In this document: positions 14,262-60,670 of the stretch, piece after piece
How positions within the stretch are numbered: position 1 is the first letter of the stretch
Layout of the letters: the number at the start of each line of letters is the position of its first letter
Assembly: GCF_037042905.1 (NCBI RefSeq)
Contig: NC_087250.1
Span: 23,066,001-23,130,000, forward strand
DNA: 64,000 nt
Direction of reading: 5' to 3'
Source: Lytechinus pictus
Lineage: Eukaryota
Notes under the pieces: generated by a model
The model's input: the letters and a program-made list of their open reading frames with translations, nothing else
Told to the model about the DNA's origin: nothing
Database searches by the model: none
Made by a program: the position numbers and the translations under genes

Positions 14262-14293
<32 letters not shown>

Positions 14294-30638: not shown

Positions 30639-30669
<31 letters not shown>

Positions 30670-30700
30670 CCATCAGCATCATCATCATCATCACCATCAG

Positions 30701-30746
<46 letters not shown>

Positions 30747-36290: not shown

Positions 36291-36407
36291 CAGAGCGTAG
36301 CTCCAGGTACGCTTCTGTCAGAATTTGTGTTTATTGATTCACCGAATCAGTGGCACAATTATTAAATAACTGGTCCCGAGACAGGTGTAGGCATAACATT
36401 AGAGTAT
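36291..36407 (-). ncRNA. Candidate Sm-site snRNA-like gene, degenerate copy (lacks GACUAGGUC tip)
   Basis: Hairpin - AAUUCUGA - 3' hairpin (CAGAAGCGUA...UACGCUCUG); TTAACT at 36449-36454 and AATCGATT at 36640-36647 sit at family spacing. The first hairpin folds better on the + strand, so this copy is weaker. Confidence 0.4.
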
Positions 36408-37372
36408 ATATATTAATATTTTGTATCATTATCAAAATTAATAGTTGAAGTTAATTTTAATTACGGTACTTTACGATTTATATTCAGTGTTAATTATTCT
36501 TTGATAAAAGGGCTTAAACCTAAATTTAAAATAAGGTAATATATCTTAATGTTATTTTTTTTCATTAATGAAGATAGTTTGGAGGAGAGAACATGGCATC
36601 TTAAATTCTGCAAACGAATAAGAGTAAGGCTGGTATATGAATCGATTATATGATTTTCTTTTTTTTTTCAAAATAAATAGATGATGGTTGATATGAGTAT
36701 TTACAAGTATGATGCCATGGCCGAGTTAGCCTCTTGTCAAGGCCCTTGTGGGTGAATTTATATCCTAATTTGCGAAATGAGTTGGGAATATCTGGGTTGC
36801 TGATGCTTGCCAGAATTCAACCGCCAGGGCCTCGATAAGAGGCTATGGCAGACATTGGCAGCGGAAGGCAAAAAATTTAAGGGGGGTCCACCTAAAATTT
36901 TGGAATGGACACAGGTAAAAAATTTGAGAAGCAAGAAAAAAAAAAAAAAAGGGTTACCAACCAAAATTTTAGGTGGGGGGCCACAAAAAATTTAGGGGGG
37001 TCCACCTGAATTTAGGGGGGACGCAGGAAAAAAATTGACAAGCAAAAAAAAAGCCCCCTAACAGACGCGTGGAAGTTCGGGGTTCGATCCCCGGCTATGA
37101 CACATAAGCCCACTAGCAAGGCATCTAAAAACAATATACAAATGATTAATATTCATGGAGCAATGCAAAATATGCTCATGCTATGCAGTGCAAGCTCGGT
37201 CCGTTGATTGTTGCTTACATACAACACGCGCGATGCAATCACGAATATTTTACTTGAGGTGCCTGCAATCTCAGTGCGCGCGTGCAATGGACAAAATAGT
37301 ATGGATCCAAAGTTGCACGGATGATGACGTCATTGTAAAATGGGCTGAATGATCGATATCCATAGAGAGGAC

Positions 37373-37535
37373 GTGCCGTGGCCGAGTGGTCTAAGGCGCC
37401 TGGCTATACATGGAAAGTCCGGAGTTCGATCCCCGGCTGCGGCAAGGCAAATCTACAATGCTCTTTTATCCTGCTTTCAAATAAATGGAAATGCTATATG
37501 CATTATTGGTAACTAGGTGTGCACTTGTTTAAAAA
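37373..37535 (+). mobile_element. Short tRNA-derived SINE family 'gtgccgtggccgagtggtctaagg' (copies also at ~39618, ~43450, 44852-45032, 49064-49252, 56341-56523(-), 58810-59441(-))
   Basis: A box TGGCCGAGTGG, B box GTTCGATCC, shared tail aatgctcttttatcctgctttcaaataaatggaaatgctatatgc + A-run. Confidence 0.8.
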
Positions 37536-39063
37536 TATATATATATATTATCTCGATGAGTCTATGTCGATATCAAACAACCAATCAAATGACAAGGATA
37601 TATTATCTAGGTGTCATAAAATGCGTTTTAACCTACATTCAAATAAATGGAAATTTTCATACATATTCTAAGTAATAAATTAGTGTGCACATGTCTTAGA
37701 AAAGAGAAGGAAGTTAATAAGAACAAAAAAGGGCTATTCAAATATGACGTCATTTCATTTTTATTTACTACTACCACTACTACTACTACTGTCACCACCA
37801 CCATCACCACTACTACCAGGGGCGGATCCAGGATTTTCCAAAAGGGGGGAGGGGGCATATTTCCCCGAGGAAAAATTTGACAATCCAAAAAAAAAGGTCT
37901 TCATTTTCAAAAGGGGGGGGGGCACACTTCTGTTTTAACGGCATTTTTACATTACATGCCCCCCTGGATCCGCCAGTGACGACGACTACTACCAGTACTA
38001 GTACTAGTACTACTACTTCTACTACTACTACTACTACTTCTACTACTATTGCCACCACCACAATCACCACCACTACTGCTACTAATAACAATGATAACAA
38101 TAGAAATAATAATGTTAATAATATCATGATGATAATAATAATAATTAAATAGTAATAGTAGTAATAATAATACTAATGATTAATAATAAGTTTGTTTATA
38201 TGGCGCGTCGCGTCTGTAAGTGCATCATTCCGGTCATCAGAGGCAACATAAAGGTTATTGCTATAATGGAATGGCCTATCAAGATCATCATTGCATGCGC
38301 ATATTGTTCAGTACACTGACTATGAACCAATCAGAACTGTTGTTTCAAAAGTATGAGGTAATCCGAAGTAGAGTAAGTCTCATCGTTGCACACGCATATT
38401 GCTCAGTAGACCGACTCGGAATCGATCAGATTGTTCTTTCAAATTAGCGATTGATCGCTAACCTTTGTGGTACGGTGTCAATATCCTTGCACGCCCGCAC
38501 ACAATGTGTACTCTCCACACCATGGGGAGCATTCTACCCGAAAGGTTTTCAAAACCCCACTGCTAGGCATACTACAGAGGCTTTCGCATCCACCGGGTAC
38601 CCATTTTGGGTTTATTTCCAATTTGTCTAATGCTAATTCGTCCAATTGCCAACTCGTCTACTATCATTTGGTCTACCATCAGTTCGTCCACTCAACACAT
38701 GGTCTACTTTCATTTAGTCTAATGCCATTCCATCTAATAACCAGTTGGTCCAAATTCGTCCAATAACCATTTAGTCCTTATACCATGTGGTCTAATTAAA
38801 TTAAAGTATTTTATTGTGCAAAATGAATGAAAGAAAATGGTAATAGACGAACTGGTGACTAGACGAAGTGATGATTGGACCAAATGGTTGTTAGACGAAA
38901 TGTTGATGGATGGAATGGCATTAGACTAAATGAAGGTAGACCATGTGGTGAGTGGACGATACACCTGGGTGGAGAGTGGCAAGGTGCGGATTGACGTGTT
39001 GCACAGGACAAAGTGGCAGGCGGACCATTGCTAAGTTGTGATATTTTGCTATCATCATGGCAA

Positions 39064-39196
39064 GGAGAGATGCCTAAGCACTACTCCATTCAAAATTAGA
39101 CATGACACTCCGTATCCAAACCAACCTAGTCAGAATGGTATACAGAGCTCGCTGACAGTGCTTAGCCGGCATGCTGTGTGACACCAATCAGGTAAT
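39064..39196 (-). ncRNA. Candidate Sm-class snRNA-like gene A
   Basis: CUCUGUAU-A-CCA-UU-CUGAC UAG GUUGG-UU-UGG-AUACGGAG hairpin, Sm site AAUUUUGA (39090-39097), 3' hairpin GGAGUAGUGC UUAG GCAUCUCUCC; CTAACC and AATCGATT upstream. 5' end approximate. Confidence 0.72.
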
Positions 39197-39504
39197 AATA
39201 TAATAATATATAATTAAATTATATTATTTTTAAAAGGTTAGCCTGCAAACAAATCTATTCTTAGATATGAAAGTTGGAGGATTAAATTCACTTTGACTGA
39301 AACATTTAAAATAAAAAATAAATATTTGTATTAATATATATGCATCAAACATAATTTTTTTAAAGGCATCCCCCTTTGGTTGGTAATGTTGGCACGAGAA
39401 AAAATACCTACGTAATCGATTCTGGATTAAAAAAAATAATAATCGGAGATCAAAAGAGGCAATCGAATAAGGGAAGATCCGAGTCTGCAAGCACAGTATG
39501 TGTG

Positions 39505-39620
39505 GGTGGGTGGGTGTACGAGGGTGTTTGGAGGTGGGTGGGTGTACGAGGGTGTTTGGAGGTGGGTGGGTGTACGAGGGTGTTTGGAGGTGGGTGGGTG
39601 TACGAGGGTGTTTGGAGGTG
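39505..39620. repeat. 28-bp G-rich minisatellite (~4 copies)
   Basis: Unit ggtgggtgggtgtacgagggtgtttgga. Confidence 0.85.
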
Positions 39621-40140
39621 CCGTGGCCGAGTGGTCTAAGCCTCTGACTATACATGGAAAAGTATTTCCCCTTCTACTAGCTTGTTTTTTTCCTCTCCTT
39701 TCCTTTAAAAACTTTTGTTCATTTGGGATGGATTTCCGTTAATCCAAGCTTTATCAATTTTCGCGTGAAACCAATGTTGACTGGAACTATACAGTGCGTC
39801 CCAGAAAAAAGGAAACCAAAATTCAGTGTAATTTGTTACCATCATAATTATGAATGTGCTTCATGAGATGTATATCTATTTAAAGATATAATTTCCCTCT
39901 TCATTATGAAGCCCATCTCAAAGTTCTTAATACACGCATGATTGAGTTAGAACAAATTTCCATTTGCAAGAGCAAATTAAGAATTTGAGTGAGTTTTTTC
40001 TGGCTTTTACTGTTATGTATTCGGAAAATAAAGTCTATTAATTTTAATATTCATTTGTTCATCTTTCATATGAGTCTTCGTGCTTGAAAGATTATACAAA
40101 TAATTAATGCACGTAAGCGCGTGCATGCAGGGCTGATTAA

Positions 40141-40534
40141 AGAGAAATGCCAGTAGTTGCAGTAAACACTGATTTCATGAGAAAGTCTGTAAAACCAGGC
40201 TTAATTGTCAGTATATCATCGAGGATCTAGATCTGGTACAGTTACACAAACTGAACTTTGTGAAATCTTGAAATCTACGCTGAAAAATGTTCACACTGAA
40301 GATCACCAACACAGATAGGCACACGTGGGACAGTGTATTATTATTGCTTGAATAAAGACCCGACGGAAGTGACCGAATCCGCGCTTATTTTGCTTATTTC
40401 TCAGCAATTACACAATTTCTTCCAGAATCCTTTGGCACATATTTTTTATTCATACAAACTGACACTTGGGTGGTCATTATATAAGATTCTGTAAAAAGTC
40501 ATTTTGAGATCGTTACCAGAACTGGAATTTATCT
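40141..40534. mobile_element. TTAA-flanked MITE (second Kolobok-like family)
   Basis: ttaa|AGAGAAATGCCAGT...ACTGGAATTTATCT|ttaa; shares its right TTAA with the next MITE. Confidence 0.6.
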
Positions 40535-42225: not shown

Positions 42226-42565
42226 GGAAGCGCCGTGGTGTAGCGGGTCTGACTCCCGCATTGTAATTAGAGGGTCGTGTGTTCGAATCCCACCATGGCC
42301 TAGCGTCCTTTAGCCAGGCGTCAATCCACACTTTGCCACTCTCACCCAGGTGTTAAATGGGTACCCGGTAGGATATGAAAGCCTATATGTAGTATTCCTA
42401 GCGATGGAGTCTTGGAACTCTTGTTGGAATGCTCCCCAGTGAGTGGAGAACTGTGCATACATTGTATGCGGGCATGCAAAGATCCGATGACCGGGGTAAT
42501 AATATATCTGTAAAGCGCTTAGAGACATTGTTCCGATGTGTTATATCAATACGGAATATTATTAT
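42226..42565 (+). mobile_element. tRNA-derived SINE
   Basis: gccgtggtgtagcgg...gttcgaatccc head; core atccacactttgccactctc.acccaggtg; related to the 46427 copy. Confidence 0.8.
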
Positions 42566-43015
42566 TTAAAAAGATACACTGAATTCATGTTTCCTTTTTC
42601 TGGACACACTGTATATTCTTTAAGAGTCTACACAGTGCTTCCCCTTTTCTAAACGAAACTTCCTGGAATTTACTCTCAAAGTTCTTGGATTTTTACAAAA
42701 TATCCGGAATTTTACAAAATTAATGTTCTCCAGTCTTCCATAAGTTATAATTCTGTTCTGTACACACACACAAAAAAATGAAATATAGGGCCCAGTGCCG
42801 TAATTGAGCCAAAAATTTTGAGGGGGCGAAACATGACGTAACGGGCAAAGTTTAGAGAGTTGCGAGCGAGCAAACATGTTGATATATTAATTAAAGAGAT
42901 CCAATTTCGTGATAGATTTTGACATATTAATTCAGAAAATAGTATTTTTTTCCGAAAATGATAACTTCCTGGATTCCAGGGAGAGTGTATTGCATCTATG
43001 TCTTGTCAGGGATGT

Positions 43016-43162
43016 AGGAGTAGTGCAGCAGCATTACTCCTTCTAAAATTGTTTGGTTGTTCCTCCTGTCCGATCCGACCTAGTCAGAACGAACAGGAGT
43101 CGCTGATCTTAGCCCGAAGGCTGAGCGGCTGGCCTGGCTTTGGCTTGGATAAGAATGTTGAT
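43016..43162 (-). ncRNA. Candidate Sm-class snRNA-like gene B (U2-like 5' segment)
   Basis: CUCCUGUUCG-U-UCUGAC UAG GUCGGA-U-CGGACAGGAG hairpin, AAUUUUAG, 3' hairpin AGGAGUAAUGC UGCU GCACUACUCCU; AATCGATT at 43383-43390. 5' end approximate. Confidence 0.72.
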
Positions 43163-44271
43163 AGAAACACTTAATATTCATTAAAAATTTACTTTTAAAA
43201 AGTAGTTATTTTATTTGTGAACATGAGATTTGGAGTGTGACAGTTGTTTTGTCTTCACTTTAACATACTTCATATTTATGTGTATATTTAAAAAATTCAA
43301 ATGACATTAAAATGTTACGATGTCTTAATGAAATTGTATGAATATACTCATATTGTATTGTTTGCTTGCTCTGCTAATCAATAATCGATTCCTGAGTAAT
43401 GAGCAATCGATTATTTCTCCAGAATGAGTCATTTGGCCTTTGCGCTGACCCTACTAGACACATGAAAAAGTCCCGGATTCGATCCCCGGCCACGACACTT
43501 ATATCAATCAGTGAGCAAGGCATTTAATCAACAATGTTCTTTGGTCTGTATTCAAATGCTATACTCATTCTTGATACCTTAGCTACACATATTTATGATA
43601 TTTTAGTTACACAGATTTCCTACATTTTAAAATTATTTTGTATCACGTCTCAATGATAAATATAATTTTGTTCATATTAATTTTTTTAAATAAATATAAT
43701 AGAAAAAACTCTTGTTAGATAATTTTAGTGCTGACGTTACAAAAATGTGTGTTTCCTGTGCATGTCAGCATTCTTTTGTACAATATTTCGGTAAGAGTGT
43801 GATGAAATGATGCTGAAATCGGATAGTGCAATGATACATTGATTTAAATGGGGCTTTCAGGCTAATTATGCATTCATGAAGTAAGATCTGAAGCCCAAGA
43901 AAACAAATCTGTGAGAACACTAAAATACTGCAATAGATATCAGGTCAAGCATTGTCCGCACCCGGACTTAGATTTGGTTTGGACGGGGGTGTGCGGGGTG
44001 GTTCAAAACCCATACCCATATTTACGGGTCATTTTGGCTGAAAAGGTACCCATTATTAAAATTTGACAAAAAGAAAGGTTATCACCCAAAATTGAAGGAG
44101 AATATGGATCCATGTTTAAGGCCAGTATCTAAAAATTGGGGCCATGGACCCATGTTTAAGGCCAGTATCTAAGAAGTGGGGCCATGTTTAGGGATTTTCC
44201 AGCATAAAACCATATAATAACCCATGTATAGGGATTTCTTCCAAAAAAAGCGACCCATTCCAGTGGCACAT

Positions 44272-44485: not shown

Positions 44486-46164
44486 GTGGCACATCCACGT
44501 ATGCCTTATTTCGTGAGTACCCCCCCCCCCCCCGGGTGTCCGCAGGCACTTGTAATGCAAAGTAGAAACAACAAAACTATAGTAAATTATTGCGTGATAC
44601 AACTGGTTACGTAATAGGTACTTATGTAAAAATTGTATTCGCATAGAGATTCAGATGTTGGTGTATATAATCATTTTTAAAGGTAAATGACAGTTGTTGC
44701 AGCAAATAATTATTTCATAAGAAAGTATTTTAAATCTAGGTTAATTATTGTCAAAATACTATCCAACATCTCGATCTGGTACATTAATGTAAACTTATCT
44801 TTGTAAAATCATGAAATCTTATCTCAAAATCGATAATTCTGATGATCTGATGAGGTGCCGTGGCCGAGTGGTCTAAGGCGCCTGGCTATACAAGTCCGGG
44901 GTTCAATCCCCGGCCGCGCCACCTATGCTGTGAGAAGGCTTTTCATCTACAATGCTCTTTTATCCTGCTTTCAAATAAATGGAAATGCTATGTGCATTAT
45001 CGGTAACTTGGTCTGCACTTGTTGAAAAAAAATCACTAACACAGAAAAGCATATGTGGGACAGTGTATTAATATTGCTTCGAAAAATGTCCGACATTTGA
45101 TGGAATTCCATATTTATTTTGCTAGTTTCTCAACAATTACGCATTTTCTTCCGGAGTCATTTCGCACACATTATTGAGCAAAGTTTCAATACAGTCGTGA
45201 ACCTGCCGACCATCCGTGACCTGGCCCGTGTTTCATCAACATTTTTGTGTAACAAGTTGTCAGATCTGACAACTTTCCTTGATTCTGATTGGCTGAGAGG
45301 CACTGTTACTATGGTAACTGTCGGATAAAACGTCTGACAAGTCCTTTATTGAAACGCTTCCCTGAAATCTATTGTGGTATTGAACATCCTCACATAAATA
45401 GTGTGTCAGCTCATGTGTCGGTGTCGGAAGGATAATTCTTGCCAAAATTCATATTAATGATTATATATAGGGCAATTATCTAACTTTATTTAAACTATTG
45501 TATTATTGCCTGGTGTAATCCAAATACCTCATTTATAAACAGACTTTTTTTATTGCATAAAATGCTGTCCGTATTATTACAAAGTCCTCTTATCTTGCCA
45601 ATTTGAAACCACTTTTTCCTCTTATTATTTCAGATTTTGAATATTTATGATTTAAATCTCTATAATATTGGAATTTCTATGTATCTTTGTTGCAGAAATA
45701 AAATTCCAATTCAAATGAAAAAAATCAATTCGAGTCTGATTTTTCACATTGTAATACAACATCATCCAGCAAATATCATTTTCCCCAAACAGCTCAAAAT
45801 TGTCTATTTTCTTTTAAGGTCCAGAAATATGGAACAATATTGAAAAAATTGTAAGAGAAAAAAAAACTTTGAACTCATTAAAATTTGATAAAAGATTGGA
45901 TTTTCCTGCATGTGTATAAAGTGTGTATGTGTCTGCATTAAGTTTAATTGTAAATTATTCAAAGTAACCACTACTTAAATTTACTGTCTCATTACATTTA
46001 AATGTTTAATATTGTATACACATGACTGTGCACTTGCTGTTTGTAAGGGAATAACCTTTGTAAACAAGTTTGCTTTTGCTATCCCGGCCCATCCACTTTA
46101 TTATAATAAGCTGTCTTGGCACACTTGTGGAATAAAAAAAAAAAAGAAGATTATTCATTCGTTG

Positions 46165-46276
46165 GGAGAAATGCCGAAACACGCCTCCATTCAAAATTAC
46201 GATCGTCTGCGCCTTCTACGACCTAGTCAAAGATGGCGTGGTACTGTAGCTATGAGCCACGCTAACAGCTAAAAAT
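46165..46276 (-). ncRNA. Candidate Sm-class snRNA-like gene C
   Basis: CGCC-A-UCU-U-UGAC UAG GUCG-U-AGA-A-GGCG, Sm AAUUUUGA (46191-46198), 3' hairpin with UUCG tetraloop and G-U pairs; AATCGATT at 46843-46850, pushed out by a SINE. Confidence 0.7.
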
Positions 46277-46426
46277 GAAGTTTTAATCAATTAAACCTGT
46301 TATTCAATAATATAAGATATGTTAACAAGCATAAACTCAATTTGCTGTATTTTTGGTGTAATTAAATACACTGTATTAATGTTGTATCTTTTTAAATAAA
46401 AATATGCAATGACTATTATAAATAGT

Positions 46427-46785
46427 GGAAGAGCCGTGGTGTAGTGGTTCAGACTCTCGCCTTGTAAACAGAGGGTCGTGTGTTCGAATCCCATCGCGGT
46501 CTAGCGTCCTTTGGCAAGGCGTAAATCCACACTTTGCCACTCTCGACCCAGGTGCTAAATGGGTACCCGGTAGGATGCGAAAGATATTGTATGTTTGATT
46601 TTGCCAGCGCCATAATGAGGCTGCGATGAATGCAAGGAATGCTCCCCAGGGAGTGGAAATTGTGCACTTTTCGTGTGGAATTGAATGAATCCAATGACCG
46701 GGGTAATAATATGCTGTTACGCGCTTTGAGCCATTCTGAAAAAAGCGCTCTATAAAACTTGGCTGTTATTATTATTATTATAAAT
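46427..46785 (+). mobile_element. tRNA-derived SINE inserted in the promoter region of snRNA-like gene C
   Basis: A/B boxes (tggtgtagtgg; gttcgaatcc), core shared with 42226, (TTA)n tail. Confidence 0.8.
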
Positions 46786-49493
46786 AATTGATGAATAAAT
46801 CATTAGTTTCAGTCAGTATTCTTATTCAAATATACCTGAAGTAATCGATTCTAGTATATGAAATTTGCCTTTATCTATACGCCGATTAACTCTTTGCACG
46901 CTGTATTACTTTTGGGGAATGACAATGACAATTGTTTCCATGTAATTTTACTTAATTTAGGATTTCCATATTGCACCATTGATACTTATTATTATATCCC
47001 TCTTATGAATATTCATGAGTATTCTAGATAAAAGATTGGTCAATTCTTTCTTTAACTTTTGTTCACAATCATTCGTTTTATTCTCCCATAGTCGTGATAA
47101 GGCGTGATGGTTGTAAAACATATTCGGTAATGTTATGTTAACCAGCTGGCGACTCATGATTTTGCTGTAACAAATGTTTTTATTATTAATTATTTTGTTT
47201 TGTTTTTTCTATCGACTCTAGCCAGCATACCAATTTAAAGAGTACAAATAAATTTCATCAGAAAGGACAATTACAGTATACACACATGTAAAGGAATATG
47301 GGAGCGTTATGCGGGTCGGGAGGGGGCACAAAAGTGAAATTCAGCACTGTTGCCTCTCACACATGCCACTCCCATGACATACATCAAATCAAGAAGATCT
47401 CCTTGATCAAATATATTATTCTCTTACACAAAATATTGCACATTGAAAAGTAGGGATGCAGGGGAAGGCGGTGGGGGGCAAAGAAAAAAATCATCGGCTT
47501 TTATGAAAATTCTAAGATGGCCACCACAGTTTTACAAAAACTCTGGTGTTGAGTTAACACCAGCCCGGAATCTATATATGCCCACACAAGAGAAGTGCTA
47601 ACAACACCATTTTCGTTTTGGTCTAACATCAGATACTTGTTTATACAACACCAATTTGATTCCAAAGGGGAGATGTTGCAATACTTCTCTGATGTGGACA
47701 TATAACGATTACGGGCTGGTGTTAAATCAACACCGGAGTTTTGGCAGTGTAACTGGACACTTCAAGCAATACAAAAAAATTTGTTTAAATTTTCTCTGAG
47801 GGTACACGGGAACTCCTTTTGCGACTAGACGAGCTCATAAATATTGGAGAAATAATATTACATTAACATGACTTTGTATAGCGCTTGTTTAGAGTTGTTT
47901 ACACTTAGTTTTAGATGTAAAAAAAATTGATAAACGATATATGGTTTCAATTTTGACTTGTAGATAGTGAATGATGGAGAGCTTGTTATGTAAATTGGCA
48001 AGCTATTCCATAGATTAGGGGAAGTAAGAGCAAATGCGTGATCGACAAGTGTGTCGTTTGCTGTTTGCAATATTATTATTATTGTTAGTATTATTATCCA
48101 TTAATTTCATCATTACTATCATTATAATCCATTATTATTACTATTACCATCATTATTATCATTATAATAATAATAACAATTAATATTATCATTATTATCA
48201 TACTTTTCATGTCCATGCTAATCATGTACATTTGTAAATATTTCCCGATATTCTGAACATTATTGACTCATAAATTTTATACATTGTAAATATTTTTCAT
48301 TATTCTGAACATTTCTGGACACATAATGTGTATGATTGAAATGTTATTGATGATACTAATCCATAATATTAACTGATAATAATTGGTAATATTTCTGATG
48401 TCATCTGGTATTTTTCTTAGTTTCACTCGGTCATAATAAAATTAAATTTAATGAATACAAAGTGAAGTCGATTGCAATTTACAATAGATGATTTGTATTT
48501 AACTTATTATTAATTCAGTTATTTGTCAAATTCTTCTGTGTAGCTTACTTTCCTATCTAATCGTAGACAAGCTCTTGCAGAGTGTCAATCAATAATAAAG
48601 CATTCAATTGAGATTCAAAACAGCTTGGATAATGTCCACAATCAAGTCAAATTACTGCATTATTTTTTTCTTTTCTTTTATTATTCATATTGCAATGAAT
48701 CAATTCAAATGATAATTGCTGATTGATCCATGTTACATTTGTTTCGCCAAATAAATTGTTGCCGGTTTAATTTGTATACTTTTAATTCATATGTTTCTTT
48801 GTATATTCTTATACTGACCTGGATGGAGGTAAAGGGGTGTGGGAAGGAAGACCTGTGGGTCATGGTAATTTAGTTAACCTTTTCCAAACGCAGGCAGCCC
48901 CTTCATCTCTATTCCAGGTCCTTTGTACTATGTCATGTATATCCTATTGTTTATGTAATTTGCATTGTACTGTAATTTATGTTTTTTGAAATGCCGAATG
49001 AATAATAATAATAGTTCTGATTTCTTAATAAAAAAAAAGTGATCGATACCCTTATCACATGTGGAGGTGCCGTTGCCGAGTGGTCTAAGGCGCCTGACTA
49101 TACATGGAAAAGTCCGGGGTTCGATCCCCGGCCACGGCACCTATGCCCGTGAGCAAGGCATTTAATCTACAATGCTCTTTTATCATGCGTTTAAATAAAA
49201 GGAAATGCTATATGCATTATTGGTAACTAGGTGTGCACTTGTTTAAAAAAAAGTCCGGTACAGCTTTGTACAGATTGGACAAAACAGTAATCGATTAATA
49301 CCGAGGGAATATTTTCAAAGTTTTAATCATATTTAAACTTACAAAAACCCCGTTGTAGTTACTAATATATAATTTATTTGATTGCACTCTGAAAATGTAA
49401 TTTAAAAAAATATGTAGGGTAGCAAAAAAAATCAATTTATTACTAACTATAACGATTTTATGCTTTAAATTAAATATTAGCAAATCTTTGAAG

Positions 49494-49575
49494 ATCCCAA
49501 GCAACTGCATTTAGTGCCAATATTGTATATATTGGAAATTTTGGCAGGAGGTATTACCTAGTGTATCTGCCTCCT
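49494..49575 (+). ncRNA. Candidate Sm-class snRNA-like gene G (short type, + strand)
   Basis: CCAAUAU UGUAU AUAUUGG hairpin, Sm AAUUUUGG (49537-49544), 3' hairpin AGGAGGUA...UGCCUCCU; CTAACT at 49443 and AATCGATT at 49289-49296 upstream. Confidence 0.6.
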
Positions 49576-49593
49576 CTACTCAAACCGGTCCAC

Positions 49594-50429: not shown

Positions 50430-51215
50430 AAAAAAATTATGAGTGCAATGGACAGAATACTTCATGAGATGAAAGATGAAATGATCCATTAAACGCGGCG
50501 TACCCGAGTTGAATGGATCTTACACGTCATCTTTCACCGAACGAAGTATTCTGTCCATTGCACGAATGATAAGAACATTCATTATTTGGTTTATTATGAC
50601 ACCTAAAATAATATTATTTTTCATATGAAAATTTATGAATTTCGATGCAAATTATGCTCACAGAGTGCGAGCTCGGTCTGTTGATTATTATACAAAATAT
50701 GTCTATGAGGGCAATGGACAGAATATTTCATGAGGTGAAAGATAAAATGATCCATTCAACGAGGCGTAGCAGAGTTGAATGGTCATTCTTTTCATCTTTC
50801 ACCGAACGAAGTATGCTGTCCATTGCACCAATGATAAGAACATTCATTGTTTGGTTTATATGACACCTAAAATAATATTATTTTTCATATGAAAATTTAT
50901 GAATTTCGATGCAAATTATGCTCACGGAGTGCGAGCTCGGTCTGTTGATTATTATACAAAATATGTCTATGCGGGCAATGGACGGAATATTTCATGAGGT
51001 GAAAGATAAAATGATCCATTCAAAGAGGCATAGCAGAGTTAAATGGTCATTCATTTCATCTTTCACCGAATAAATATTCTGTCCATAGCACGAATGATAA
51101 GAACATTCATTATTTAGGTTTATCATGACACCTGAAAATATATTATTTTTCATATGAAAAGTTATGAATTCGATGCAAATTATGTTCACGGAGTGCGAGC
51201 TAGGTCTGTTGATTG
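50430..51215. repeat. Three tandem ~265-bp units, each with an internal long inverted repeat
   Basis: gcaatggac.gaata recurs at ~50446, ~50711 and ~50976. Confidence 0.85.
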
Positions 51216-52144
51216 TCGTGTACATACAACATACGCGCTGCCAACACGCATAGACTAATACACACAATTTCTTGCATCATGATACAATGCGCTTTTGGTG
51301 TTACCCCGGATTTAGATCGAGCTACCATCACCGGCGCTCAGTGCATGAAAGGAATTAATCCTGCCGGGTACCCATTTACCTCACCTGGGGCCCGTTTCAT
51401 AAAGCTGTTCGTAAGTTAAGAGCGACTTTAAGAACGGCTGGTGATCCTTTCTTGTGGTAAACGATGTTCACCATTAATAATTATTTAGCTCGTAAGAAAG
51501 GATCACCAGTCGTTCTTAAAGTTGCTCTTAACTTACGAGCAGCTTTATGAAACACCCATCTGGGTTGAGTGCAGCACAATGTGGATAAATTTCTTGCTGA
51601 AAGAAAACACGCCATGGTTAAGATTCGTACCCACGACCTCTGTTTGAAAGGCGAGTGTCAAAGTTATTATTCTCATCATCATCAATTTTATTATTATTAA
51701 CATTATTATTAATATCATTATCATTGTTATTATTATCAATATTATTATTGTAAATGTTATTATTATCACTACTGTTGCTGTTTTTATCATTATTAAGATC
51801 AATATTATTATCATACTTTCATGTCCATGCGAATTATGTCCCAGTAATGTGTGGAGACTACACATTACTTTCTGATGTGATCGATACCATTATTACAATC
51901 ATGTCCGATACAGGTTTGTACAGATTTGATGAACAATAATCGATTCATACCCTGAGAGTATTTTCAAACTCAAAATCATAATTAAACTTAAAAAAACGAC
52001 TATGTAGTTGTCAATTATGTTTAAAATTATTTATTTTATTGCACTATGGAAATGAAATAAACTAAAACAATATCAATGATAGCAAAAGAAGTTTTAAGTT
52101 GATACTAACTATGACAGTTTTTGCTTTAAAACAATTATGAACAG

Positions 52145-52228
52145 ATCTTCACCTCTCTATTTACCACTCTAGGCGACACGCCTATTATTTATTTTGGCAG
52201 GAGGTAGCACTTCTGAAAAGCTACCCCC
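52145..52228 (+). ncRNA. Candidate Sm-class snRNA-like gene H (short type, + strand)
   Basis: UAGGCG ACA CGCCUA hairpin, Sm-like AUUUUGG (52191-52197), 3' hairpin GGAGGUAGC...GCUACCCCC; CTAACT at 52105, AATCGATT at 51938-51945. Confidence 0.55.
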
Positions 52229-53594
52229 AAATGTTCCAACTCTTCATCAGGAAATCTGGAGGAAGCAAAGTAATATCTCAGTATCATTTGCCCTACGACA
52301 GCTGTACGCCGGGTCGAAAAGTCGTTATAACATTTCTTATCAGCTACATGTAGTAACAAAGAAACCGCGTAGCAAGGATTTCAATTTAGAGGGCGGTAAA
52401 TGCACGCGAAGCAGGGAGTGCAGGGAGGGGGAGTTTCCTCCTCCAGCGCAAAGCTTTCGGTGTTTCATAAATTAAAATGAAAGAGAGCCGCCTTTCTTGT
52501 CTCTAGTACTTATATCAGCTCCAATTCAGTTGACTTTGTTGTGATTTTGAACCTTGCTTTCAAAAGTGATTGTGAACGCACAAAAAAAGGGATAAAATGG
52601 AGGAAATTAAAACAAATTATTACCCCGCGAGAAGCGCGGAAGCTTAAGCTTTTTATCAAGCTTTTTTCCAAAGAAAATGGTCCCGAGGTAAGGGTATTCT
52701 CTAAGTTATATTGAATGCTTCCCTTGGAAAGATCAGATTTGATTACAAACAATTTAGCGACAGTGCATATCTTTAACTCGCAAAACAAAGGAGAAGAAGG
52801 GTATATGCCGGTAAGAACATTTTCCTCCCTGCGCAGAACAATGAAACTCTGAAATTTCAAAGGGCGGACGATTCATCAAATGCAGATATCTCTGATACCC
52901 CCATCGGCTCGAATTCAATTGGATTTTCTAAGATTATTGAACTTCATTACAAGGAAAATAGTGCGCAAAAAGTTGAAACTTCTGTGATTTGTTGAAATCA
53001 TATAAAAAAGCCTGATGTATAATTTCCTTGACTTATCATTAAGCGCTTCATTTTGAATGATAAAGAAACTTTAGTGTTATTCAAAATTTCAAACTGAGGG
53101 CGTAAAATAGGACAGGAGATGAATGTGAAGGGAAATGACATGAAGTTTGATAGAATTTGATAAAAAAATATTATACTTTTTTTTATTAAATACGACACGA
53201 ATTTTATACCATCCTCTTTGTAAATTAGGAACCTGTTTGCCCCCAAATTATGGTTGTTTAGTAATAAGCCTTCCCAATGCCTGAAACCAAGTGAACTTTT
53301 CTTTCTTACCGATGAATCAAAATGCTCTTTTGCCGATTTAACTCTACGTCATAATAGTTGCCTGGACTTTACTCATTACGTCACAATATCTTCTAAAAAT
53401 GCACCTGTCGCGTTATGTTGTTGCGGATTGTATTTATTGTGCGTTGGTATCATCACCAAATGATGCAACCTGTTTTGGATAATAAAATCATCCCTGAAGA
53501 AGGTCTATGACCGAAAATTCGGAAGATTATGTCTCCTCACGGCGTTTCTATTACGTCTTCTTTTGTTTATATATATATATATATACATATTGTG

Positions 53595-54005
53595 TGAAAG
53601 AAATGGATGAAGAGAACAATGGTAGGCGTAGCTTAAATCAAGGTTCCCCAGAGCTATCTACCCTTTGGAAAAATTGGTGATGCCGAAAAAATGTCTCTGC
53701 CGGGAATCGAACCCGGGCCCCCAGCTTTGAACGCCGGTGCCCTAACCACTAGACCACAGAGACGGGTTAGTGGCTAGGGCGACCCCTATCAGATTGACCG
53801 TCAGATAGACAGATTTTCGACACTATACAAATTATAATTTCCTTTGTCGGGTGAAGGTGGGTTTTGAACAAAGCTGGGGGCCCGGGTTCGATTCCCGGCA
53901 GAGACATTTTTTCGGCTTCACCAATTTTTTCAAAGGGTAGATAGCTCTGGGAAACCTTGATTTAAGCTACGCCTACCATTGTTCTCTTCATCCATTTCTT
54001 TCACA
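53595..54005. mobile_element. tRNA-containing element with ~135-bp inverted duplication, in (TA)n
   Basis: 53595-53729 is the near-exact reverse complement of ~53869-54005; flanked by (TA)n runs. Confidence 0.65.
53692..53763 (-). tRNA. tRNA-like cloverleaf (tRNA-Glu-like body, UCA at anticodon position) inside a repeat element
   Basis: GTCTCTG/CAGAGAC acceptor stem, A box TGGTCTAGTGG, CCGGC/GCTGG anticodon stem with loop GT-TCA-AA, T arm CCGGG TTCGATT CCCGG, then T6. G32 is non-canonical. Confidence 0.5.
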
Positions 54006-54057
54006 AATATTGAAATAAAAGAGTTGCCAAAGCTGTTGTACATGTATAACTTCACAC

Positions 54058-54120
<63 letters not shown>

Positions 54121-54127
<7 letters not shown>

Positions 54128-54312
54128 GAGGCAAAGTGTTTTGTACTTAGTTCCAACAGTTTATTTTGAATTCCAAATTTTCGACGTTAGACATACGTCT
54201 TCTTCAGGGATAAAGCTCCCTGAAGAAGACGTATGTTTAACGTCGAAAATTTGGAATTCAAAATAAACTGTTGGAACTAAGTACAATGCATTACCACTTT
54301 GCCTCATTAATA
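54121..54312. mobile_element. Penelope-like element remnant: inverted duplication with hammerhead-like core
   Basis: ~90-bp arms around a 6-nt spacer; each arm has CTGAAGA-A-GACGT...ACGTC-GAAA; embedded in (TA)n. Confidence 0.6.
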
Positions 54313-55880
54313 TCTTCTATGTCCAACACGCGGAACTCAATATCGTCATATATATATATATATATATATATCCATTCTGGAAGCTTCTAGTATTGTCTTT
54401 AAAAAGAACATTCTGCTTCTTTTTAGAGCAATCCTAATTCTATATAGAAGACTCTTGAATGACCTCAGTGAAATTAACAATGTAAACAACATAGCTAATC
54501 CTATTGTCCTTTTCCCCTGCTAGCAGTCTATTGTCTATTGTCCATTGTACATTTCAAAAATACCATACATTACTCAGCCTCATTTTTACAAAGCTTAATT
54601 GAGGCATTCTGGAATATTCTTATTACGCAATGAACTTCTTAGAGAAAAAAAAAACTACATGGATGAATGTAATTTCTCTTCCAATTCTTCTTATACATAA
54701 CACTACATAACACCAGTTGTTGCTACACGCATTCTTGCTTTAAACAGGGACGTGAGACGCCCCTGCTTTAAATATAAAGGGGGAGTGAACTGTATGTGGT
54801 CTCTCATTGACTATGTGTTATGAATACATAGTCTTAAAATGTACTTTTTCAGATATCTAATAATACTACAGAGAATAAATTGACCTTTACTTGTATTTGT
54901 TTAGAGAAACTAAAATGTTTTGAGAGGAAAAGTAATTGTTTTGCTGACTGGTAACATAATTATTGCGGTATAAATGTACTGAGTAGTTATTATAGCATGT
55001 CATTATTCATGTGGGTCTATATTACTTGACTACACTAGCATTATGGGTCAGGAAATTGGCCAGGTATGAGTAGTTGAGGACTCGAGGTGGCGCTATTGGT
55101 TCGTATCTGCTTTAAATGAAAACATTTTAAAGGAAAATATGAATAATCAAGACATCAGCGTCGGTGCTTATCTCATTGAATATTAAACCACCATGCCACT
55201 AGAGTTCCTGAGCTTCTTCTGATCATGCGCAGAATAGAACTCCTAACTGGCTTGCTGCAGTCTACAGAGTGGATTTGGCGCTTGAAAATCACATATGTAT
55301 TATTAAATCAAGGTTTGACAATACCCTTGTACACTTAAAGGAAACCAGAACCCAAGAGAAGAAGCAATCTTATTGGAAAGAGTAAAATGAGAGGAACAAG
55401 TTAAAAGAGCTTCATCAAAATCGGTTATGAATAATAAGCAAGTTATGGACGTTTAACAAGTCTTGTTGTACTTTCTATGGCGATCCTCAAATTGGCAAAC
55501 GTGCTTCTAAATGGCTGATTTTGCGGACAACTCTCCATTTGTTTTGTACACAAATTTTCAGATTTCCCCCCTTTATTTTACATATTTCACTTTATCTCCT
55601 CCTGACCTTGACATATGTGATGAGAATTATATTTTCCCATGACACATTTTGTGCTCATAATTGCAAGATGCAATTTGAAAGATAATGAGGAAAATCTGAA
55701 AATTTGTGAACAACACAAATGGAGAGTTGTCCACAAAATCAGTCATAGAAAGTACAAGACTTTTTAAACGCCCATAAATTGCTTATTTCATAACTGATTT
55801 TGATAAAATTGTTTTTAATTGTACCTCTCATTTTACTCTTTCCAATTATCTTGCTTCTCTTTTACGGTTTTGGGAACATT

Positions 55881-55997
55881 TCGGAGAGGTGCTGGCGCAC
55901 TTCTCCGATCAAAATTTGCCCGTATCCGACCTGACCTAGTCAAATCGGCATAAGGGAGCTCCGGCGTTTGCTTAGGCTGCTCAGCCTGCCCATAGAT
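55881..55997 (-). ncRNA. Candidate Sm-class snRNA-like gene D
   Basis: CCGAUUUGAC UAG GUCAGGUCGG hairpin, Sm AAUUUUGA (55909-55916), 3' hairpin UCGGAGAAGUGC GCCA GCACCUCUCCGA; CTAACT begins 50 nt upstream of an AUC; AATCGATT at 56215-56222. Confidence 0.75.
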
Positions 55998-56039
55998 TAT
56001 AAAGAGATTTTTATTTATTTAAAATTAAATAATTTTTAA

Positions 56040-56322
56040 AAAGTTAGTCGCTAAAAGGGTTACAATTATATAGATTAAAATTTTCGATAGTAATTCTAGA
56101 ATCAAATTGTTTTTAAATTTTCAATTCTGAGATTTTTCAAATACAATCCAAATAACTACGCATGAATGTAGTTTTTGAAAGGTATTATGGTTGCCCCCCA
56201 AAATATGATTTTATAATCGATTTAGTCCTTTTTTAACCTATCAAACAAAGTCAGATATTAGACAGCATGTACAGACCCTATTGAAGTTTTTATCAACACG
56301 TGGGTCTTCACAAAAGACTAAG
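56040..56322 (-). promoter_or_regulatory. Putative snRNA-type promoter of gene D (PSE-like CTAACT + distal AATCGATT block)
   Basis: Blocks alignable by eye with the regions upstream of E and F (ctatc.aacaa, acagaccc, ttgaa..ttt.tca.cac.tgggtctt, aaagact). Confidence 0.6.
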
Positions 56323-58079
56323 TCATAGTCCATTCCATAATTTTTTTTTGAACAAACAAGTGCACACCGAGTTACCAATAATGCATATAGCATTTCCATT
56401 TATTTGAAAGCAGGATAAAAGAGCATTGTAGATTAAATGCCTTGCTCACGGGCATAGGTGCCGTGGCCGGGGATTGAACCCCGGACTTTCCATGTATAGC
56501 CAGGCGCCTTAGACCACTCGGCCATTCCATAAAATGTTGCTTTGAATCAATACAGAAAAATCAACAAGCATAACGATAAAAAATCATAAAAATCGGACGT
56601 GAAAGTAAGAAATTTCTGATATTTCATAGTTTTGCTTAGTTTTCACAAAACAGTTATTATGCACAACGCACTGACATGCCAATGAGAGGGGGGTCGATGA
56701 TATCCCTCACTCACTTTTTTTTATTGTTTGAATTACAATAATTCAAATATATCAAGTTTTACAGATTTGACAAAAAGGACCTGAACCATAAAGTGTTTAA
56801 AAAATAATAATTCCACATGTTCAGTGAGGGATTAAACTTTGTTTCAAAGGACAATGAGGAGAAAATTATTCATTTTCCATGTAATAAGATACAAAAAGTG
56901 AGTTGGTGACGTCATCAGTTACCTCATTTGCATACCGACATATTTTGTGAAATTAAGAGAAACTTAAAAATGTCATAACCTTCTTACTTTATAACAGATT
57001 TTATTGAAAATGTCAGTGTTATTGTGGTTGGATTTTTCACTTTACTCAAATCGACTTTTTTGTTTGGGTGGACATGTACTTTAAATTAAAAGAAAGAAAA
57101 TGGCGCACTTAGCTCCTTTGATCGCTTTCAACTGAATTATTGATACTTAAAATACATCTACAATCATACAAAAAGTCAAGTCCACCCCAGAAAAACGTTG
57201 ATTTGAATCAGTAGAGAAACATCCAACAAGCGTAATGTTGAAAATTTCATCAAAATCGGATATAAAATAAGAAAATTATGACAGTTCAAAGTTTTGCTTA
57301 TTTTTCACCAAACAGTTATACGCACAACTCAGTGACAGGCAAATCAGAGAGTGATGTCCGTCAATCACTATTTCTTTTGTTTTTATGGTTTGAATTATAC
57401 AACATTTCATTTTTTACAAATATGACAAAATTGATAAGGACCAACTTGATTGAACCATGCTAATTGCACATATTCATGGTAAAATAAAATTTCTTCCACA
57501 CGAGGAGAAAAATAAAATATTTCCAATTTTATATAATAAAATAGAAAAGAAATAGTGAATGGGTGACGTCATCAGTCTTCTCATTTGCATACAGACCAAG
57601 ATGTGCATAACTGTTTTTTTTTCTTTTATTAAGTGAAACTTTAAAATGCTATAACTTTCTTATTTTAATTCCGATTTTTATGAAATTTTCAGTGTTATGC
57701 TTGTTGGATTTTTCGCTTTCTATTCAAATGAACTTTTTGTTGGGGTGGACTTGTCCTGTAAGGGAATGATCGACTTCAACCTTGGGTTTATCACTATACC
57801 TGTATACCTTACCCTAACCATGAAACCCTATTGCAACCTTATTAACCCTAATACCTTTGTCACATTTCTTCTGAGGCGGCTTCAAACCACCTATAATGTG
57901 GCAGGTACAAAACAAAAAAACATGTTAATACGACTGTCTTCGAGCAAATGTGACTGAGGAATTATCTTATATCCTAGAGGAAAAAAAGCATAGAGCGATC
58001 AATAATTGTCGCCGGAACAAATGTCGTCGGAATAAATGTCGTGACACTTGATGGCTGATAAGGAAATTTTCACTATACA

Positions 58080-58197
58080 GGAGAATGCTATCGTAGCATT
58101 CACCCGACCAAAATTTCAGTAGTGTGGCTCCGTATCCGAACGACCTAGTCGGACGGACCGGAGCCAGGCTCCACTACACTTCACAAGTATCAATGAT
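58080..58197 (-). ncRNA. Candidate Sm-class snRNA-like gene E
   Basis: GUAGUG..UGGCUCCG-G-UCCG-UC-CGAC UAG GUCG-UU-CGGA-UA-CGGAGCCA-CACUAC long stem, Sm AAUUUUGG (58108-58115), 3' hairpin GAAUGCUA CGA UAGCAUUC; CTAACT at 58238-58243, AATCGATT at 58445-58452. Confidence 0.75.
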
Positions 58198-58235
58198 GGC
58201 GAGAAGAATTTATACAAATATATTATTTTTTTTTT

Positions 58236-58556
58236 CTAGTTAGCGTGCTTTAGAAATTGTTTGTTAATATATAGGTTAAAAGTTTAGATTTTTTTGAATT
58301 ATTACTGTTTTAATTTCTAAACAAAAAAATTTCGTGAAAAAATTTGCAAAAAAGATTAAAATAGCTATGATTGAATGAGACATTTTAAAGGTATCGTGGT
58401 TGACATTTCATAAAATAATATCGATAATAAAGATAAAATAATGGAATCGATTCTTTTTTTTCTATTTAGCTATCGAACAAAGTGAAGAGCCTAGTCTGCA
58501 TGCACAGACCCAATTGAATTTTTATCAACACAGGTGTCTTAAAAAAAAGACTAGAA
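58236..58556 (-). promoter_or_regulatory. Putative snRNA-type promoter of gene E
   Basis: Same ordered conserved blocks as D and F. Confidence 0.6.
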
Positions 58557-58937
58557 CATATATTAAAGGTCGAAATCACTCAAGAAAAAAAAGTGGATTT
58601 GAATCAATAGAGTACTACGATATTAAATATCAAACAAATAACCAAAAAATTAGATTATTTGGCTATTTTTTATTTACAGGAAATAGAGCACAAAGTAAAC
58701 AAAATAATTATTATATTAATAAAAAAATATGATAATCCAAATAATCCGTATTGGCTGGCAAGAAGTTCTTTATCAAAAGTCCACAATGCTGGCGATGATG
58801 AATTTTTTTAACAAGTGTACACCTCGTTATCAATAATGCGTGAAGTATTTCAATTTATTTGAATGCAGGATAAAAGAGCACATGTGCTGTGGCCGGGGAT
58901 CGAACCCCGGACTTTCCATGTATAGCCAGGCACCTTA

Positions 58938-59416
58938 CCGCCCTTTCACAGGGTACCAAACTCGTAATTTGAATGATGATTCCAGTGAAAAATAATTCTA
59001 ATTACGAACTTTTAGCACGTGTGAAACCAAACTAGAATCCCGAACGTTAAGCACAATCACGAATTCAAATTCTACTCCGGAGGTGAATTCCAGTTAAGTT
59101 TCACTCAAATTACGGTACGAAGTTTACGTCTGAAAGGGTTGACCTCCAAACAATCTTTTGAGGGGCGGAGCTTACGTGACCTTTCGAGCACTTCCGTAGA
59201 TAATACAATTTCATGCGCTCATCGTAGTTTCTTTTTTTGCGATGCAGTGCTTTGATTGGGTTTGATTGACAAGTCACCAAGGACACAATACCGCCTTCGC
59301 TCAGGAATTCGAATTCAAATCACAGTTTTCGAGTGAACTTGTGAGCGGGACAATGATTCTAAAGACGAAATGCAATCATCACAATGATGATTCACGATTC
59401 TCGTGTGAAAAGGCCC
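58938..59416. mobile_element. PIF/Harbinger-like MITE splitting a SINE
   Basis: TTA TSD, imperfect TIR ccctttcaca...tgtgaaaagg; SINE halves rejoin across it. Confidence 0.65.
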
Positions 59417-59639
59417 TTAGACCACTCGGCCACGGCACTTCCATTGATGTTGGCATACGATTTCAACACACCTTCCGATCTTATTGTTACTGTGTGTAAT
59501 TAAAGAGAGCAGGAGACAGATAGATATGAGATTATACAGTGAAAAGAAAAGTAGAAAGAGGGAAGGAGGGAAAGATAAATGTCCCCAAAATGCTTCTAGG
59601 ATAAAGGGCTGGGTCATACTCTCGGCTCAGCCAAAATGT

Positions 59640-59879
59640 ACACAGCAAAAACTCCGGTGTTAACCGGTGTACATAGTGGACCACACCAGTTATTTTACAC
59701 CGGTGTTAAATTGACAGTGTTAGTTTAACACCTATAGGTGTTATTATAACACCTTCGGTTATTACATTTACACTCTTTGGTGTTATGTTCAGTCTCTAGG
59801 GTGTAATTTTAACACCTCAGGGTGTGGTCCTCTATTAACACCAACTGGTGTCAGTTTTAACACCACAATTTTTACAGTG
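59640..59879. mobile_element. Short CAC...GTG (EnSpm-like) MITE
   Basis: tacacagcaaaaa...tttttacagtgta with internal ggtgtt/aacacc subrepeats; related copy at ~47505-47752. Confidence 0.5.
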
Positions 59880-60218
59880 TAGAACACTTGTACCAATCTA
59901 TTGCCAGAAAGTATTATGTAATACTTGTATTCATATATTGCGACGATTTCCAACTAAAGGTAAGTGATTAACATCTAAAGAGATCGAAAGGGATAGTTAT
60001 ACAATATTGATGAAACCACAGTTGCATAAATTATTGTTGCATATATTGCCAACAGTTCCGCGTTGACTGTGGGAACAAGCCATTTCAAAATCAATGAGTA
60101 TATCTTCTCTTTTTTCAATTTATCAAAAGCCATCAGGGTCACGTGTTACAGTAACGCACTTCCAAATGTTCGGCTCATGATCAGCCTGGATTGTTTGGGA
60201 AGGTAATGAAGAAATTCG

Positions 60219-60341
60219 GGAGAAACGCTAAGGCACTTCTCCGTTCAAAACTTGAGTATATAAGGCTACGCAACCGATCCGACCTAGTCAGATCGGCTTA
60301 TGGTGCCCCATGTCTGCGTTTGCACCTAATATATCTTGTAT
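60219..60341 (-). ncRNA. Candidate Sm-class snRNA-like gene F
   Basis: AGCCGAUCUGAC UAG GUCGGAUCGGUU hairpin, Sm-like AGUUUUGA (60245-60252), 3' hairpin GGAGAAGUGC CUUA GCGUUUCUCC; CTAACT at 60384-60389, AATCGATT at 60565-60572. Confidence 0.72.
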
Positions 60342-60381
60342 AAAATTCAAATTTCATATAATTAAACTATATTCTTAAAAA

Positions 60382-60670
60382 ACAGTTAGCGTAGCGTGCT
60401 ACGAAACATTCATTATCATTAAAATGGAAATATTTGATTATAATGCTAGATCAAAGTGTAATTTTTATTTTTGATTAAATGTTTTTCTCCAAAAGCATTT
60501 AAAAACACGCATAAACTATAGCATTATGATGTTAAGGTTGGCACTTGTACAAGTACCATATTATAATCGATTCATAATTCAAGCTATCGAACAAGGGCAG
60601 AGCGTAGTCTGGAGTTACAGACCCTAATTGAAATTGTTCTCACCACGTGGGTCTTGAAAAAAGACTAGAA
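60382..60670 (-). promoter_or_regulatory. Putative snRNA-type promoter of gene F
   Basis: Same ordered conserved blocks as D and E. Confidence 0.6.

Follow-up and report, generated by a model that had tools for sequence, protein, structure and literature searches.

Nine clustered snRNA-like genes in Lytechinus pictus that may represent a diversified, lineage-specific family of Sm-class RNAs

What kind of gene are the nine short loci that lie 36.3 to 60.6 kb into a 64,000-nucleotide stretch of the genome of the sea urchin Lytechinus pictus (NC_087250.1, positions 23,066,001 to 23,130,000; this whole stretch is the window referred to below), each of which combines a U-rich word and a terminal hairpin with an octamer shared by all of them? 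An initial annotation, made from the letters alone, had proposed that they are undescribed genes for Sm-class small nuclear RNAs (snRNAs). The loci, named here units A to I, are real and lie on the strands first assigned to them, their Sm-like words agree in all nine cases with those first listed, and a 3' hairpin follows the word in 9/9, which is the arrangement of Sm site and terminal stem-loop found in RNA polymerase II (Pol II) snRNA genes. We put at roughly 55% the probability that they are members of a family of Pol II Sm-class snRNA genes that is specific to this lineage and kept by selection.

The feature common to all units is the palindromic octamer AATCGATT, of which the window holds 13 copies where 2.59 would be expected (standard deviation 1.54), a count reached by 0 of 100 shuffles, whose maximum was 8. 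Ten of these 13 copies fall at 36,640 to 60,572, and, as first stated, at least one stands upstream of every one of the nine loci, unit C having two. Three things can be added to the first description: a second shared promoter box, (C/T/A)TAAC; a division of the units into a long type (B, C, D, G, H, and I) and a short type (A, E, and F); and a reach of the family beyond the coordinates first given, beginning with a tenth unit, J, described below. The layout of a unit is an exact AATCGATT, then 154-209 nt to the TAAC box, then about 60 nt to a predicted RNA that carries the U-rich Sm-type word and the terminal hairpin. The octamer-to-box distance falls in that range in nine of the ten units and is 525 nt in D, where a repeat has inserted, while the distance from box to Sm word is 85-94 nt in E, F, and J and 127-159 nt in A and the six long units. 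The predicted RNAs of the nine window units are 64-134 nt long, lengths that rest on placing the RNA start about 60 nt after the TAAC box.

That placement comes from the canonical snRNA genes of the same genome. Pol II snRNA genes have a proximal element about 55-60 nt upstream of the start and a distal enhancer about 200-260 nt upstream. Matches to canonical families were found elsewhere in the genome for U2 (48), U4 (18), U5 (48), U12 (4), U11 (3), and U4atac (2), with the U11, U12, and U4atac genes scoring 92-115 bits against their family models. In the U12 (4/4), U11 (2/2), and U4atac (2/2) genes examined, the CTAAC of an ACTAAC(C/T) box starts at -59 to -62, and the same box stands at -59 to -62 in a single-copy U5 gene on contig C3 and a U2 gene on contig C19; in the U4, U5, and U2 genes of the tandem arrays the corresponding boxes are related ones with TAAC or AACC. 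Seven units (B, E, F, G, H, I, and J) have a box of the ACTAAC(C/T) type, so that they carry the type of proximal element that this species uses. Because the same sequence occupies -59 to -62 in canonical U12, U11, U4atac, U5, and U2 genes, the TAAC box of the units is, judged by sequence and position, the proximal element that snRNA genes of this genome use, and by inference the RNA would start about 60 nt after it. The octamer has a narrower distribution among canonical genes: AATCGATT is also found at -260 of one solitary U4 gene (L032), and the distal element of the U11, U12, and U4atac genes is ATGAATATGCAT near -250 instead of AATCGATT. In the parts of the literature available to us we found no account of such a family or of AATCGATT as a promoter element; earlier work on the snRNA promoters of sea urchins may be relevant to this octamer. 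The canonical tandem arrays themselves lie at C8:33.237-33.285 Mb for U2 (period about 1.04 kb), C13:21.634-21.679 Mb for U5 (about 1.36 kb), and C14:25.097-25.120 Mb for U4 (1.2-1.7 kb).

The six long units are all on the minus strand and can be aligned. Each has a long stem whose tip is an invariant GACUAGGU, then a U-rich word and a 3' hairpin with GGAG at its start. R1, a covariance model built from their aligned core, gives them 64-84 bits and the rest of the window at most 20 bits, and a search of 100 kb of flanking sequence with R1 returned no match. A genome-wide IUPAC pattern combining a GACUAGGU-type tip with an Sm word has 10 matches, six of which are the long units (reversed control, 5), and the other four fail R1, which leaves the long-type motif confined to the window cluster. 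Unit B (39064..39181; 118 nt predicted) has the GACUAGGU-tipped stem, AAUUUUGA, and the 3' hairpin and scores 82.9 bits, and its promoter (39237..39421) runs from AATCGATT at 39414-39421 to a GCTAACC box. Unit C (43016..43149; 134 nt; 81.4 bits) has AAUUUUAG as its Sm word and a U2-like 5' part with GGCUAAGAUCA; its promoter (43205..43412) holds the two copies of AATCGATT, at 43383-43390 and 43405-43412, and the variant box ATAAC. Unit D (46165..46265; 101 nt; 71.8 bits) has the Sm word AAUUUUGA, and in its promoter (46321..46850) the octamer at 46843-46850 is separated from a variant TTAAC box by an inserted repeat copy at 46425-46735. Unit G (55881..55987; 107 nt; 78 bits) again has AAUUUUGA, with a promoter at 56043..56222 that extends from AATCGATT to an ACTAACT box. 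Unit H (58078..58183; 106 nt; 64.3 bits) has AAUUUUGG and a promoter (58239..58452) with AATCGATT and a GCTAACT box 209 nt apart, and unit I (60219..60329; 111 nt; 83.5 bits) has AGUUUUGA and a promoter (60385..60572) that likewise ends in GCTAACT.

The short units consist of hairpin, Sm word, and hairpin. Unit A lies on the minus strand (36291..36394; 104 nt predicted) and shows hairpins, the degenerate Sm word AAUUCUGA, and a 3' hairpin, below a promoter (36450..36647) in which AATCGATT at 36640-36647 stands 193 nt from a variant box, TTAAC, at 36454-36450. Units E and F lie on the plus strand. Unit E (49503..49577; 75 nt) has AAUUUUGG between its hairpins and unit F (52165..52228; 64 nt) has UAUUUUGG, containing the (U)AUUUUGG word, and their promoters (49289..49447 and 51938..52109), each running from AATCGATT to an ACTAACT box, are homologous to one another at 73% identity. 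Taken over all nine units, the strict Sm form of purine-A-U4-6-G-purine is found in B, D, E, G, and H and near forms in C, F, and I. When the minimum free energy of each predicted RNA was compared with dinucleotide shuffles, the z-scores were -3.4, -3.6, -5.3, and -4.2 for C, G, H, and I, -2.1 for E, and -1.55 for A. The sense strand folds more stably in six of the nine (B, D, E, G by 0.4 kcal/mol, H, and I) and in 16 of the 21 units of the wider family, a result that gives weak support; the units are not independent. It had been claimed that G-U pairs favour the Sm-site strand in A to F, and this was not borne out for A, C, and F, in which the antisense strand is the more stable.

Beyond the window, about 5.0-5.3 kb after its end on the plus strand of contig C6 (L012:5023-5330), lies unit J, with AATCGATT, the box GCTAACCATCA 181 nt later, a hairpin, AAAUUUUAG, and a second hairpin; the box differs very little from the proximal elements of U12 and U5. 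A genome-wide search with the pattern AATCGATT-N(145-175)-RCTAACY-N(74-144)-ATTTTRR gave 29 matches against 4 for the reversed control. By inspection, an Sm word followed by a hairpin is present in 16 of these 29, among which five are B, E, F, G (pattern hits L052 to L055), and J, and a hairpin of -10 kcal/mol or lower follows the word in 14 of the 29, compared with 8.4% of 214 control ATTTTRR sites. A wider spacing (176-206) gave 10 matches against 4 in the control and added only H and perhaps one more unit on C6. Such IUPAC patterns overlook any unit whose box or Sm word is a variant, and four of the ten local units escaped both. The octamer-box-Sm-hairpin layout recurs in at least 11 further units at four other places of contigs C6 and C16: on C6 (L047-L051, L057, and L058) a four-unit cluster at 20.246-20.254 Mb and single units at 20.886, 25.776, and 25.790 Mb, and on C16 a four-unit cluster (L064-L067) at 19.168-19.184 Mb. 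These are mostly short, with predicted RNAs of 60-83 nt made up of an AU-rich arm or small hairpin, AUUUUGG, and a hairpin. A 3' module of the form UUUUG..CGGAGAAG is common to the long units G and I and to the C16 cluster and therefore ties the long and short types together, and the family as a whole numbers at least 21 units.

Two candidates met in the course of these searches were set aside. A tandem repeat of about 1.6 kb also carries AATCGATT (at 5613 and 7237 of the window, at L018:929 and 2556, and at L019:9307) and has GAAUUUUGAAG with a possible hairpin about 195 nt further on, but no TAAC box is in place, and it was judged unrelated. A possible histone 3' stem-loop 290 nt downstream of J (L056:2114-2159) reaches 24.3 bits in Rfam, below the cut-off of 34, and no histone open reading frame precedes it.

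The main argument that these are genes and not relics comes from what has changed between the units and what has not. Identity in the octamer-to-box spacers averages 0.540 over 36 pairs, compared with 0.531 for shuffled sequence, and only the E-F pair reaches 0.70; since the spacers are as unlike as shuffled sequence, the duplications are taken to be old. The octamer is nevertheless exact in 10/10 units, TAAC is present in 10/10, and box, Sm word, and hairpin still follow one another in the same order and at the same spacing; in about 230 kb examined, ATCGAT lies 150-210 nt upstream in 15 of 17 combinations of box, Sm word, and hairpin. Because motifs have stayed exact and in order despite mutationally saturated spacers, the pattern argues for selective maintenance. 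Six of the nine units, B, E, F, G, H, and I, look intact.

The evidence that weighs against a maintained gene family is of several kinds, and much of it would suit an array of old tandem snRNA-gene duplicates that is dead or dying, no longer transcribed, and sharing motifs only through common descent. The boxes of A, C, and D are the variants TTAAC and ATAAC, the D promoter is interrupted by its repeat, and these three units, with their degenerate boxes or Sm words, may be decaying. Only five of the nine Sm words have the strict purine-A-U4-G-purine form, the folds of B and D are no more stable than those of shuffles (z -1.2 and -0.7), and no clear CAAAGAAAGA-like 3' box follows most units, where only loose A/G-rich stretches are seen by eye; in the canonical genes such boxes stand 9-17 nt downstream. 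The first description had stated that stem sequences differ between copies with pairing kept, which is borne out only in part: in a model-fitted alignment of the six long-unit sequences, limited to 19 pairs of the core (the lower stems differ in register), 88.5% of cells pair against 84.8% in shuffles (16/500 reach this value), and covariation is not significant, with double changes at 3 of the 19 pairs against 2.0 ± 1.0 shuffled (150/500 reach this). All sequence comparisons, moreover, cover this genome alone. As for expression, RNA sequencing run X21, of which about 25% was used, has almost no reads over the units (mean depth 0/0 at F, 0.33/0 at H, and 1.81/1 at I), with 0.06-0.37 in neighbouring promoter bins and a G bin mixed with repeat, and among the transcript starts and ends listed for this run there are no discrete ones at the units. 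This shortfall is weak evidence, because the library type is not known and RNAs of 60-135 nt are usually lost. Four runs were mapped at 85% likeness to 51300-60700, with a signal dominated by repeats; in the contig runs X1 and X4 the promoter bins are covered as deeply as the gene bins, so that these runs behave like DNA and are therefore uninformative on expression, and no RNA source is listed among the public runs for 55800-60400 of the window. The proposal of an Sm small nuclear ribonucleoprotein (snRNP) family is partly supported, by promoter, spacing, absence of Rfam matches, canonical snRNA genes elsewhere in the genome, and non-repeat character. A dead array nonetheless fits poorly with an octamer that is exact ten times out of ten and an order of box, Sm word, and hairpin that has outlasted its spacers, or with the same layout in at least four other places, as retention of this kind is unexpected under neutral decay, and we regard it as a serious but distinctly less probable account.

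The other accounts keep the units functional or assign them to a different class of element. Diverged isoforms of spliceosomal snRNAs, U2-like for the long units and U4-like for some of the short ones, would fit three observations: the 5' part of unit C aligns with nt 7-48 of the genome's U2 over 31 of 41 columns, stem I and GGCUAAGAUCA among them (z 6.1; 7 of 20,000 shuffles reach the score), the sequence around the Sm word in L064 and J is similar to the 3' domain of U4 (64 and 232 of 20,000 shuffles), and one U4 gene shares the octamer. After correction, however, for 126 unit-by-snRNA comparisons, only the C-U2 match stays near 0.05, which is borderline, and the L064 and J matches are not significant over their 21 comparisons; the GUAGUA that binds the branch point is absent from C's alignment, and the other five long units show no significant likeness to U2 (z -0.7 to 1.1). 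Nor do the Rfam models point that way: at gathering thresholds the window has two tRNA matches elsewhere and none at the units, at E<=10 over 35-62 kb there are 21 weak matches with none overlapping a unit, U2, U4, and U7 models included (RF00004, RF00015, and RF00066), and at E<=1 nine further loci of the family match no family. There is likewise no Rfam match at the units to U5 (RF00020), a family marked by its conserved loop I, with alignment z-scores of at most 2.0 against the genome's own U5, or to U11, U12, and U4atac, for which z is at most 3.5. The earlier assertion that the units match no known snRNA over their length accordingly holds for whole lengths and has to be modified for the 5' part of C, and we think spliceosomal isoforms improbable. 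Spliced-leader RNAs also have an Sm word between hairpins, and in the six long units the stem is tipped by a conserved CUAG|GU that could be read as a donor (UAG|GU) ending a trans-spliced leader. The 5' parts are, however, not shared between units and would make leaders of 45-70 nt, L057, L058, and L066 have no GU in the 5' arm at all, and no joints or loose ends at the units occur among those listed, in a region with almost no coverage. A sea urchin transcriptome study reports no evidence for spliced-leader trans-splicing in embryos (PMC3460201), and this reading can hardly be credited. Transcription by RNA polymerase III, in the manner of U6, is suggested by AT-rich, TATA-like sequence near -30, between box and predicted start in most units, yet the TTTT inside every Sm word would terminate such a transcript before its 3' hairpin, and in this genome Pol II-type genes, those of U2, U5, U11, and U12, use this very box. 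The oligo-T terminator that had been called absent is indeed lacking after the hairpin in 8/9 units, D having a T12 run 20 nt downstream, and this polymerase is very unlikely to be the one used. Descent from a transposable element or short interspersed element, finally, might be suspected from the tRNA-derived repeat copies near several units, but these stand at varying distance and orientation from them; E and G with promoter are each single-copy in the genome by BLAST, and the long-type motif is confined to the cluster, so that the units are not the dispersed high-copy repeat that would have spoken for a mobile origin. The earlier statement that terminal inverted and flanking direct repeats are lacking agrees with our finding none in the three regions searched (around C, E, and G), and a mobile origin seems most implausible.

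A lineage-specific family of Pol II Sm-class snRNA genes is thus the reading that we favour, and it can be given a provisional mechanism. Transcription would start about 60 nt after the box in a SNAPc-dependent manner, with AATCGATT acting as a distal enhancer, and the 3' end would be cut just past the terminal hairpin. The RNA would then be exported, an Sm ring would assemble at the Sm word beside the 3' hairpin, and after cap hypermethylation the particle would return to the nucleus as a stable snRNP. Across the units the promoter and the 3' module of Sm word and hairpin are constant and the 5' module is variable: in long units it comprises a U2-like 5' hairpin and a long stem tipped by the invariant GACUAGGU, and in short units a hairpin or an AU-rich arm of 20-35 nt, giving a predicted RNA of U7 size. 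The most likely origin is duplication and rapid divergence of canonical snRNA genes, and it is our guess that each 5' module has its own partner, a protein or an RNA, and acts with it in the processing of nuclear RNA. Taken to its full extent, this would mean a selectively maintained family of tens of genes in several clusters for snRNPs with canonical Sm sites, each joining a constant cassette of promoter, Sm word, and hairpin to a freely diversifying 5' module and regulating the processing of nuclear RNA with specificity for a sequence or a protein, an extension that we offer tentatively. If it were true, these would be natural 'programmable' snRNPs of U7 size together with a U2-derived long form, a class not described in any deuterostome.

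To our knowledge, the list of animal Sm-class snRNAs is short and considered nearly closed, and it is rarely that a lineage has added to it, as flies have with LU and nematodes with SmY, usually by a single RNA type. Here there are at least 21 mini-genes with one promoter, one assembly cassette, and very different 5' parts, and if they are expressed, the snRNP biogenesis pathway would be reusable as a platform for a diversifying RNA family. The analysis also yields a list of loci, a defined grammar of the promoter in this genome, in which AATCGATT is followed by ACTAACY and this by the start, and a case study of how new RNAs may arise from canonical U2 and U4 genes.

The surroundings of the cluster are rich in repeats. 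The tRNA-derived repeat is about 180 nt long with weak Rfam tRNA matches and occurs at 37369-37535, 44849-45029, 49063-49252, 56342-56524, and 58804-58937, upstream of several units. A 72-nt tRNA-like gene at 53692-53763 on the minus strand (Rfam tRNA, 59.7 bits) is called a selenocysteine tRNA with anticodon tca by ARAGORN and is followed by a T-run; it lies in a 97% inverted duplication (53587-53729 versus 54010-53869) with an RNA sequencing depth of about 160, and is probably a tRNA-derived repeat instead. Blocks of tandem repeats occupy 30600-31330, 32240-33180, and 50438-51214, with copies 80-92% identical. A G-rich region at 12800-14500, with a GC content of 0.43 and a GC skew of 0.49, has open frames of 452-539 aa, several of them and on either strand, and looks like a low-complexity repeat. 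The open reading frames within the cluster have no Pfam family above cut-off, and a 332-aa frame on the minus strand at 62925-63923, with a sub-threshold zf-RVT match (21.9 bits, cut-off 27.5), is probably a retroelement fragment.

How the family relates to known systems can be seen most directly in the snRNAs of the same genome. Unit C has stem I, GGCUAAGAUCA, and CUGUUC one after another as U2 does, CUAAG is retained behind the 5' hairpin of B and G, and the proximal box is that of the U2 gene on C19; unlike U2, the units have no stem-loops III and IV, and the long ones are 101-134 nt in length as against 192. The likeness to U4 lies in its 3' domain of hairpin, Sm word, and terminal hairpin, with UGUAGCAA before the U-run in J and a similar stem-loop in L064, and in the AATCGATT of its solitary gene, whereas the 5' stem-loop and the U6-pairing region of U4 are missing. 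Because of the U2 trace in C and the U4 traces in L064 and J, the family probably descends from canonical snRNA genes. The short units resemble U7 in their predicted size (60-83 nt) and in their build of 5' arm, U-rich site, and single terminal hairpin. U7 is marked by a UCUUU box in its 5' arm and by a special Sm site. In sea urchins the U7 genes, too, form clusters, and the U7 Sm site is RUUUNUCYNG (PMC5054213). The units, by contrast, have canonical-type AAUUUUGG or AUUUUGG-type sites in place of that consensus, and no complement of the histone downstream element was seen in them. A genome-wide search for U7 found no match among the 65 of 190,597 candidates that were scored, and since the real U7 genes of this genome were not located, the short units may yet have a U7 origin.

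Among lineage-specific RNAs, the Drosophila Like-U (LU) snRNA is similar in being of the Sm class and in having an snRNA-type promoter. LU is a single gene, expressed, capped with trimethylguanosine, and Sm-bound, and is thought to derive from a duplicated U5 gene that then diverged rapidly, with an unclear function (PMC4053861). Where LU is one expressed gene, the present family comprises diverse genes in several clusters, known from sequence. Nematode SmY RNAs are multi-copy, clustered, and lineage-restricted, with two hairpins around a canonical Sm site, and are tied to spliced-leader trans-splicing; the units share with them the clustered, multi-copy arrangement and the flanking hairpins, and differ in having no Rfam match and no sign of trans-splicing. 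The HSURs of Herpesvirus saimiri are viral Sm-class RNAs with snRNA-type promoters, a constant Sm site and 3' hairpin, and variable 5' parts that pair with other RNAs. The same combination of a constant Sm and 3' hairpin module with variable 5' parts is found in the units described here, which, unlike those of the virus, lie on a cellular chromosome and in several clusters.

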